Part shown: piece by piece, positions 15,397 through 15,621 of the stretch
How the letters are laid out: each line of letters begins with the position of its first letter
Position numbering within the stretch: the first letter of the stretch is position 1
Assembly (NCBI RefSeq): GCF_003334335.1
Contig: NZ_QOWQ01000058.1
Origin: Escherichia coli
GTDB lineage: Bacteria; Pseudomonadota; Gammaproteobacteria; Enterobacterales; Enterobacteriaceae
DNA: 15,907 bases
Direction: 5' to 3' (one strand)
Notes under the pieces: model-generated
Told to the model about the DNA's origin: nothing
Database searches by the model: none
Seen by the model: only the letters and a program-made list of their open reading frames with translations
Made by a program: the position numbers and the translations under genes

Positions 15397-15621
15397 TCAA
15401 CACACTGGCTGTAATGCAGCGGATACCATGCGGCATTTAGCGGCATTCATCGTACTCTCAACGGTTAGCTCTTCATTCGTGGCATTCACCTGAAAGGTCC
15501 GGGAGTGTAATTGCGTACATTTACCACTGAACGAACCTTCAACAAGAACACGACCACGCTGCAAAATACGGAACGGAATTGTTCCCTGAAAAGGCTTTAC
15601 GGTTACCAGTAATTTCTTCAT
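15397..15621 (-). CDS. Hypothetical protein, 74 aa, translationally coupled to Rz
   Basis: ATG at 15621..15619 overlaps the Rz TGA stop (ATGA). No family recognised (MKKLLVTVKPFQGTIPFRILQRGRVLVEGSF...). Coding status supported by coupling only. Confidence 0.4.
   Translation of the reverse strand: MKKLLVTVKPFQGTIPFRILQRGRVLVEGSFSGKCTQLHSRTFQVNATNEELTVESTMNAAKCRMVSAALQPVC

Follow-up and report, generated by a model that had tools for sequence, protein, structure and literature searches.

Among the closest described counterparts of the locus analysed here is bor of phage lambda, a cargo gene or 'moron' that lies between the spanin gene Rz and the packaging genes, and that is expressed from the prophage. 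In phages VT2phi_272 and ev110, bor sits between Rz and a conserved non-coding block of 180 nucleotides (nt). Bor-type morons are present in some phages and absent from their close relatives, and have a GC content below that of their flanks. The window studied here, the whole 15,907-nt stretch of Escherichia coli contig NZ_QOWQ01000058.1, carries in the same slot an open reading frame (ORF) of 74 codons, hereafter ORF74, which shares both of these features. From comparison with related prophages and phages, ORF74 is very probably a genuine coding gene and a moron, inserted as a single-gene segment of ~250 nt between the stop of Rz and the conserved 180-nt block of a lambdoid prophage with HK97-type packaging.

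Transcription of the phage runs on the minus strand of the window, along which the gene order is Rz/Rz1, ORF74, a gene for a TonB_C lipoprotein, a YlcI/YnfO gene (on the other strand), HNH, terS, terL and capsid. ORF74 occupies positions 15397..15621 of the minus strand (74 codons plus TGA; product MKKLLVTVKPFQGTIPFRILQRGRVLVEGSFSGKCTQLHSRTFQVNATNEELTVESTMNAAKCRMVSAALQPVC), with its start ATG at 15621-15619 and its stop TGA at 15399-15397. The slot is a variable region between lysis and packaging genes. An initial annotation of this DNA had placed ORF74 in a variable post-spanin position, and this is borne out by the empty site that we found in Stx1_14040 and VT2-Sakai, where a near-identical end of Rz and its stop are followed, after 9 nt, by the conserved block. 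In the window the same block (15202..15381, minus strand) begins 15 nt past the ORF74 stop. ORF74 and its ribosome-binding site therefore constitute an insertion of ~250 nt, whose downstream edge is marked by the block. Base composition differs accordingly along the segment, with a GC content of 46.2% in ORF74 versus 57.3% in Rz and 58.1% in the block. Presence or absence at the same site in close relatives and a differing base composition, both found here, are two of the marks of a moron in the sense of Juhala/Hendrix.

The genomic surroundings of the homologues bear on two other roles that the position of the gene might suggest. ORF74 could act in lysis, as an accessory or regulator that is translated together with Rz and tunes the work of the spanins or the timing of lysis. 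Alternatively, it could be an accessory of the virion or of its assembly (for instance a decoration or tail accessory domain) that is expressed along with the late structural genes. Close homologues of ORF74 always lie between a lysis cassette and packaging genes. However, the upstream cassette may be of the Rz type or of the M15-endolysin type, and the downstream terminase of the Nu1 type or of the Terminase_2/HNH type, so that the gene is tied to neither machinery; it occurs with unrelated head, tail and terminase modules. Many phages with a near-identical Rz lack ORF74 (28 phage records contain it, against about 400; the conserved block is in 398), and it is absent from close relatives that have the same structural genes. 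Moreover, distant homologues (27-48% identity, same PHROG) occupy other cargo slots. One such slot lies immediately before a gene with an Acb2/Tad1 hairpin (Acb2_Tad1_hairpin, PF24729), upstream of Nu1, and was seen in two contexts; another lies between Q and the holin gene, where the homologue forms the N-terminal domain of a protein of 181 amino acids (aa); a third belongs to a Yersinia prophage, in whose early region the homologue has a Ser/Thr kinase and ParDE as neighbours. The first and the third of these slots are far from any lysis gene.

On either side of the ORF74 insertion, at 15631-15639 and 15382-15390, stands the 9-bp sequence TTATTATCC (read on the minus strand), as a direct repeat. 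One copy lies just before the GGAG of the ribosome-binding site and the other just before the conserved block; the repeat is partly kept in EDL933 and has no equivalent at the empty site. It could be a chance occurrence or a recombination joint.

The size of ORF74 alone is not significant, as 39 ORFs of 30 aa or more lie wholly or partly in the last 2.4 kb of the window (13500-15907), and the case for a gene thus rests on comparison with relatives. Across nine diverged DNA homologues (60-99% identity), the frame of ORF74 is the only one of six that is free of stops, and each of the other frames is interrupted in all nine. Variable alignment columns number 24, 16 and 34 at codon positions 1, 2 and 3, and the ratio of non-synonymous to synonymous substitution rates (dN/dS, Nei-Gojobori) is 0.2-0.55 in nearly all informative pairs. 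Homologues at 59-99% identity, from E. coli and Salmonella, are nearly all 74 aa long (a few 69-79 aa), and the frame is intact also at ~30-40% identity in distant relatives. By this comparative signature ORF74 is a genuine, conserved protein-coding prophage gene, as initially proposed, and the conservation of its frame, which had been put forward as a check, holds with no disruption in relatives.

One feature is particular to the copy in the window. Its codon 56 (window position 15456) is AGT (Ser), in contrast to the TGT (Cys) of EDL933 and of a 99.9% identical relative, and Cys56 is nearly invariant across the family. Among complete E. coli genomes the best match to the gene is 224 of 225 nt, none being 100% identical, and the substitution C56S may reflect either a private mutation or an error in sequencing.

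A decaying or functionless ORF, carried along by conserved flanking DNA, or conservation that stems from a non-coding or antisense element, would be compatible with the lack of a known function, with the substitution C56S, with a neighbouring block that is conserved without coding, and with one close pair (the window and CB9615) that has 17 non-synonymous versus 2 synonymous differences, for a dN/dS of 2.8. Against this stand a frame that stays open at about the same length over such divergence, dN/dS below 0.55 in all other informative pairs, variation that is highest at third positions, stops in the other frames of all homologues, a confident fold prediction (see below) and the absence of any match to Rfam. 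We consider loss of function or non-coding conservation highly improbable as an account of ORF74.

The initial annotation had read an ATGA overlap between the Rz stop and the ORF74 start as a sign of translation. The overlap is real in the window, where the minus-strand ATGA at 15618..15621 (tcat on the plus strand at 15618-15621) joins the ATG of ORF74 (15621-15619) to the stop TGA of Rz (15620-15618), but it is not conserved among relatives and seems not to be needed. In the window the Rz frame ends ...YIRTQCTKLAFYYPENA* and carries a lineage-specific C-terminal extension of nine codons, LAFYYPENA plus stop (15618..15647, minus strand; the Rz frame being compared with that of loci L003 and L014). 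The usual stop after ...QC(I/T/L)(K/N) is replaced (TAG to CTG), and the frame is read to the TGA inside the ATGA, running through the ribosome-binding site of ORF74. Rz is accordingly 164 aa long in the window versus 153-155 aa in EDL933, Salmonella and VT2-Sakai, and ends ...CAGTGTATTAACTAG in EDL933 and ...TGCCTGAACTAA in VT2-Sakai. In Salmonella, where Rz ends ...QCIK*, and in EDL933, where it ends ...QCIN*, the ATG of ORF74 comes 23 nt later, and in other relatives (L005, L018) the gap is ~440 nt. The overlap thus exists because Rz lost its stop and gained nine codons in the lineage of the window.

What is kept instead is a Shine-Dalgarno sequence, GGAG (15627..15630, minus strand), which lies 5 nt before the ATG and, in the window, within the extended Rz frame. 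The motif around it, tt(a/g)ttatc(c/a)GGAG...ATG, is retained in ORF74 homologues, also where Rz does not overlap. This strong, independent site argues that translation of ORF74 needs no upstream translation of Rz. As judged from these alignments, the ATGA coupling is probably an accident of lineage history on which ORF74 translation in the family would not depend, although termination-reinitiation may take place at the ATGA in the lineage of the window. The unconserved coupling is a further point against a role of ORF74 in lysis. Of the lysis genes themselves, the window includes the 3' part of Rz (i-spanin; 15622..15907, minus strand), which extends past the end of the window, has a match to PHROG 13 (Rz-like spanin, E 5.6e-41) and is labelled 'lysis protein' by RefSeq in a 99.9% identical prophage, and, embedded in it, the o-spanin gene Rz1 (15707-15892), an ORF with the lipobox-like motif LVVSAC.

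Of 5426 complete E. coli genomes, 1140 (about a fifth) carry a close allele of ORF74, and it was annotated as a coding sequence in all 60 of 60 evenly sampled genome matches. Carriers include EDL933 (O157:H7), an ST131 strain and the enteropathogenic E. coli (EPEC) O127:H6 strain E2348/69. Homology and profile searches, which had been suggested at the outset, found relatives and named no function. The nearest RefSeq protein, WP_000735655.1, differs by one residue, is encoded by EDL933 and is called 'hypothetical protein'. Residues 1-73 match PHROG 2571 (unknown function) with an E-value of 2.6e-27 and 96.8 bits. ORF74 spans only columns 100-172 of the 291 columns of this profile, because some members have N- or C-terminal extensions (P0076, P0070); the distant homologues P0070, P0073, P0076 and P0078 also match it. 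ORF74 is thus already catalogued in RefSeq and PHROG, yet uncharacterised.

No match to ORF74 was found in Pfam, even at E-values up to 10, in NCBIfam, in PDB sequence profiles, in Rfam or among the PADLOC defence profiles, where one homologue had a single match at chance level (E 0.003), and a search of BFVD gave nothing significant. Structural relatives in AFDB50 are about 20 uncharacterised proteins across Enterobacterales (Escherichia, Shigella, Salmonella, Yersinia, Klebsiella, Xenorhabdus, Morganella, Erwinia and Enterobacter). A profile search with the distant homologues returned no named protein. We found no paper on the ORF74 accession, PHROG identifier, peptide or core DNA motifs, and papers on Stx-phage lysis cassettes, on small RNAs (sRNAs) of enterohaemorrhagic E. 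coli (EHEC) prophages and on Pas sRNAs describe neither ORF74 nor the downstream block.

Some candidate relationships were discarded. An exhaustive phmmer search matched repeat proteins of great length, the largest of 5740 aa. Four of these, not including the two largest (P0068, P0074), were read as sequence or scanned with Pfam and were rejected: they have unrelated folds (He_PIG, Kelch-like and beta-propeller-like repeats) or represent junk low-complexity translation, and score because copies of a short motif resembling G-x-VLV-G-S-F-S-G add up. ORF74 does not match the Pfam profiles He_PIG, Big or PKD that would mark a bacterial Ig-like or He_PIG domain. P0076 (225 aa) was considered as a fusion of the 204-aa gene upstream in locus L008 with an ORF74-like gene, and was dropped, the similarity being weak and local (E 2e-5 over 72 residues).

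A separate observation concerns the database entry P0002, in which DUF1737 (PF08410) is fused in frame to the N-terminus of a 99% identical copy of ORF74. Some prophages may thus have a DUF1737 gene immediately upstream of ORF74 in the same slot.

An AlphaFold2 model of ORF74, built on a 21-sequence alignment, has a mean predicted local distance difference test score (pLDDT) of 88.9 and a predicted template modelling score (pTM) of 0.74, with six strands and one short helix. The product is thus confidently predicted to be a small, single-domain, all-beta protein of 74 residues with a beta-sandwich fold. The absence of a signal peptide or recognisable motif, reported in the initial annotation, agrees with the empty Pfam and NCBIfam searches and with a Kyte-Doolittle mean over 15 residues that reaches at most 0.8, so that neither a signal peptide nor a membrane segment is present; in the model, residues 2-8 form one of the strands of the sandwich. 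With no hydrophobic segment, the predicted product is a soluble protein of the cytoplasm. A Walker-A-like motif, 'SGK(C/T)', was rejected on inspection, as its spacing is wrong and its first Gly is not conserved, and a zinc site made of Cys35, Cys38 and Cys56 is unsupported, these cysteines being absent from distant homologues. Net charge ranges from -2 to +6 among ORF74 alleles, and the window-type allele has lost six acidic residues.

Fold searches returned generic beta-sandwiches only, none of them significant. These results complete the case on the two roles raised above. Spanins act in the periplasm, whereas ORF74 lacks a signal peptide, a membrane segment, a lipobox and any match to a spanin PHROG, and its match to XepA is no better than those to dozens of unrelated beta-sandwiches. 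Together with the genomic distribution, this makes a lysis accessory unlikely. A virion or assembly accessory, for which no significant fold match was found and which is hard to reconcile with homologues in an early region, seems to us improbable to a similar degree.

We propose instead that ORF74 is a cargo gene that would be transcribed in the Q-dependent late transcript with S-R-Rz, late in infection, and translated from its own GGAG site. The late transcript is the most likely source because neither a promoter nor a terminator could be detected for ORF74 itself, and the gene is on the strand of the late genes. Transcription and translation of this kind, with reinitiation at the ATGA as an optional historical accident, appear somewhat more probable than not. 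The product would then bind a component of the host or of a competing phage, as an anti-defence or host-modulating accessory factor without a part in envelope disruption. A late-made soluble binding protein with such a role is a tentative suggestion, for which the circumstantial points are the distribution over cargo slots, the Acb2-like neighbour, the lack of a catalytic motif, the range of charge among alleles and the 17-versus-2 pair. Still more speculatively, PHROG 2571 might represent a hitherto unrecognised family of small beta-sandwich proteins with an anti-defence or host-modulating role. It would be carried as late-strand cargo by prophages of roughly one in five E. coli genomes (among them O157:H7, ST131 and EPEC E2348/69), and the swings in charge would reflect an arms race with the target. 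For the explanation as a whole, comprising cargo gene, late transcript and binding product, we would give a probability of roughly 0.6.

Several points weigh against this explanation. The classical definition of a moron includes a promoter and terminator that allow expression from the repressed prophage, and a crude consensus scan found neither, with no sigma-70-like site upstream on the minus strand, and the only terminator-like hairpin at ORF74 lies inside the ORF, at chance level. Homology gives no pointer to a function, the Pfam, NCBIfam, PADLOC and PDB sequence searches being empty. Many anti-defence proteins usually act early, and late expression would be atypical for them. The adjacency to an Acb2-like gene concerns homologues at ~40% identity, in two contexts only, and the non-synonymous excess between the window and CB9615 is not significant by a hand binomial calculation (~0.13). 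Finally, with Ser56 in place of a near-invariant Cys, the copy in the window might be impaired.

The conserved block that borders the insertion deserves separate mention. It surpasses ORF74 in conservation and, by a wide margin, in distribution. In Stx1, Stx2 and lambda-like phages it separates the lysis/cargo region from the packaging genes, and all loci examined have it in the sense orientation. Homology between prophages stops exactly at its 3' edge, ...GGAAGAAACCGGA, and the cargo differs beyond it, which marks a sharp recombination boundary. Its annotation is inconsistent: it carries 'orf48' or 'Rz-like spanin' in the forward direction, reverse ORFs, or nothing. Single-nucleotide indels are common among its copies, and the block is therefore not coding. 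A 91-aa ORF at 15161-15436 (minus strand), which overlaps the 3' end of ORF74 and matches PHROG 6954 'Rz-like spanin' (E 4e-14), was rejected as a spurious annotation artefact, since it overlies this block whose copies differ by 1-nt indels.

RNAalifold predicted seven helices from 28 diverse copies of the block. In these helices, 97.1% of cells are paired, versus 95.6 +/- 0.3 in shuffled alignments (reached in 0 of 500), and the covariation score is 0.157 versus 0.131 (0 of 500). Only four pairs have double changes, a number that 86 of 500 shuffles reach, so that support is moderate. Strand asymmetry gives a clearer signal, with 129 G-U versus 8 A-C cells, and with 97.1% pairing in the sense versus 84.3% in the antisense orientation. 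Folding of the single sequence is not significant (z -0.7), and only the comparative analysis is informative. The block has no match in Rfam and is not among the described sRNAs of EHEC prophages. It is a candidate for an undescribed structured RNA, on the sense strand and in the late transcript.

Other genes of the window include a second low-GC (42.9%) cargo gene, at 14726-15058 on the minus strand, which encodes a lipoprotein-like protein of 110 aa with the lipobox-like motif LVMGC and a TonB C-terminal domain (TIGR01352, E 1e-14). The label 'Rz-like spanin' that it receives through PHROG 1267 looks wrong. A promoter-like site lies beside the gene at 15112-15085, and the gene is absent at this position from EDL933, ST131 and Stx2_EH2201. 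Its product might act against TonB-dependent receptors, superinfection exclusion being one possible setting. Further along, the portal region (6678-9262, minus strand) is split into ORFs of 407 and 454 aa with a 4-nt overlap, and the matching gene of a near-identical prophage carries the RefSeq flag 'phage portal protein, frameshifted'; this may point to a defective prophage or to a gene that uses a programmed frameshift.

A single uncharacterised cargo gene such as ORF74 is ordinary for a lambdoid prophage, and the 180-nt block may be the more interesting lead. ORF74 is nevertheless a catalogued gene that has never been studied, although it resides in prophages of major pathogenic lineages (EDL933 O157:H7, ST131 and EPEC O127:H6). 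The finding that it is a discrete insertion, maintained by selection and without a place in the lysis machinery, corrects what one would naturally guess from its location, and makes it a reasonable and cheap candidate for anti-defence or host-interaction screens.

How ORF74 compares with known systems depends on the level considered. By fold, it resembles generic beta-sandwich binding modules, against which many unrelated superfamilies score equally: its identity to CBM6/35/36, the PNGase F domain, the hemocyanin C-terminal domain, a lambda gpJ domain and the PA-IIL lectin is 4-17%, with no shared motifs, and such modules are extracellular or virion-borne, unlike a protein that lacks an export signal. 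By general character, it resembles the sponges and inhibitors of the Acb2/Tad1 type, which are likewise small, devoid of enzymatic motifs and located in accessory slots; no relationship in sequence or fold is apparent, Acb2 being helical and ORF74 all-beta. By position and manner of insertion, the likeness is to bor, which is unrelated in sequence and which, in the records of VT2phi_272 and ev110, lies on the opposite strand and is annotated as an outer-membrane protein precursor, whereas ORF74 encodes a product without an export signal and lies on the late strand.
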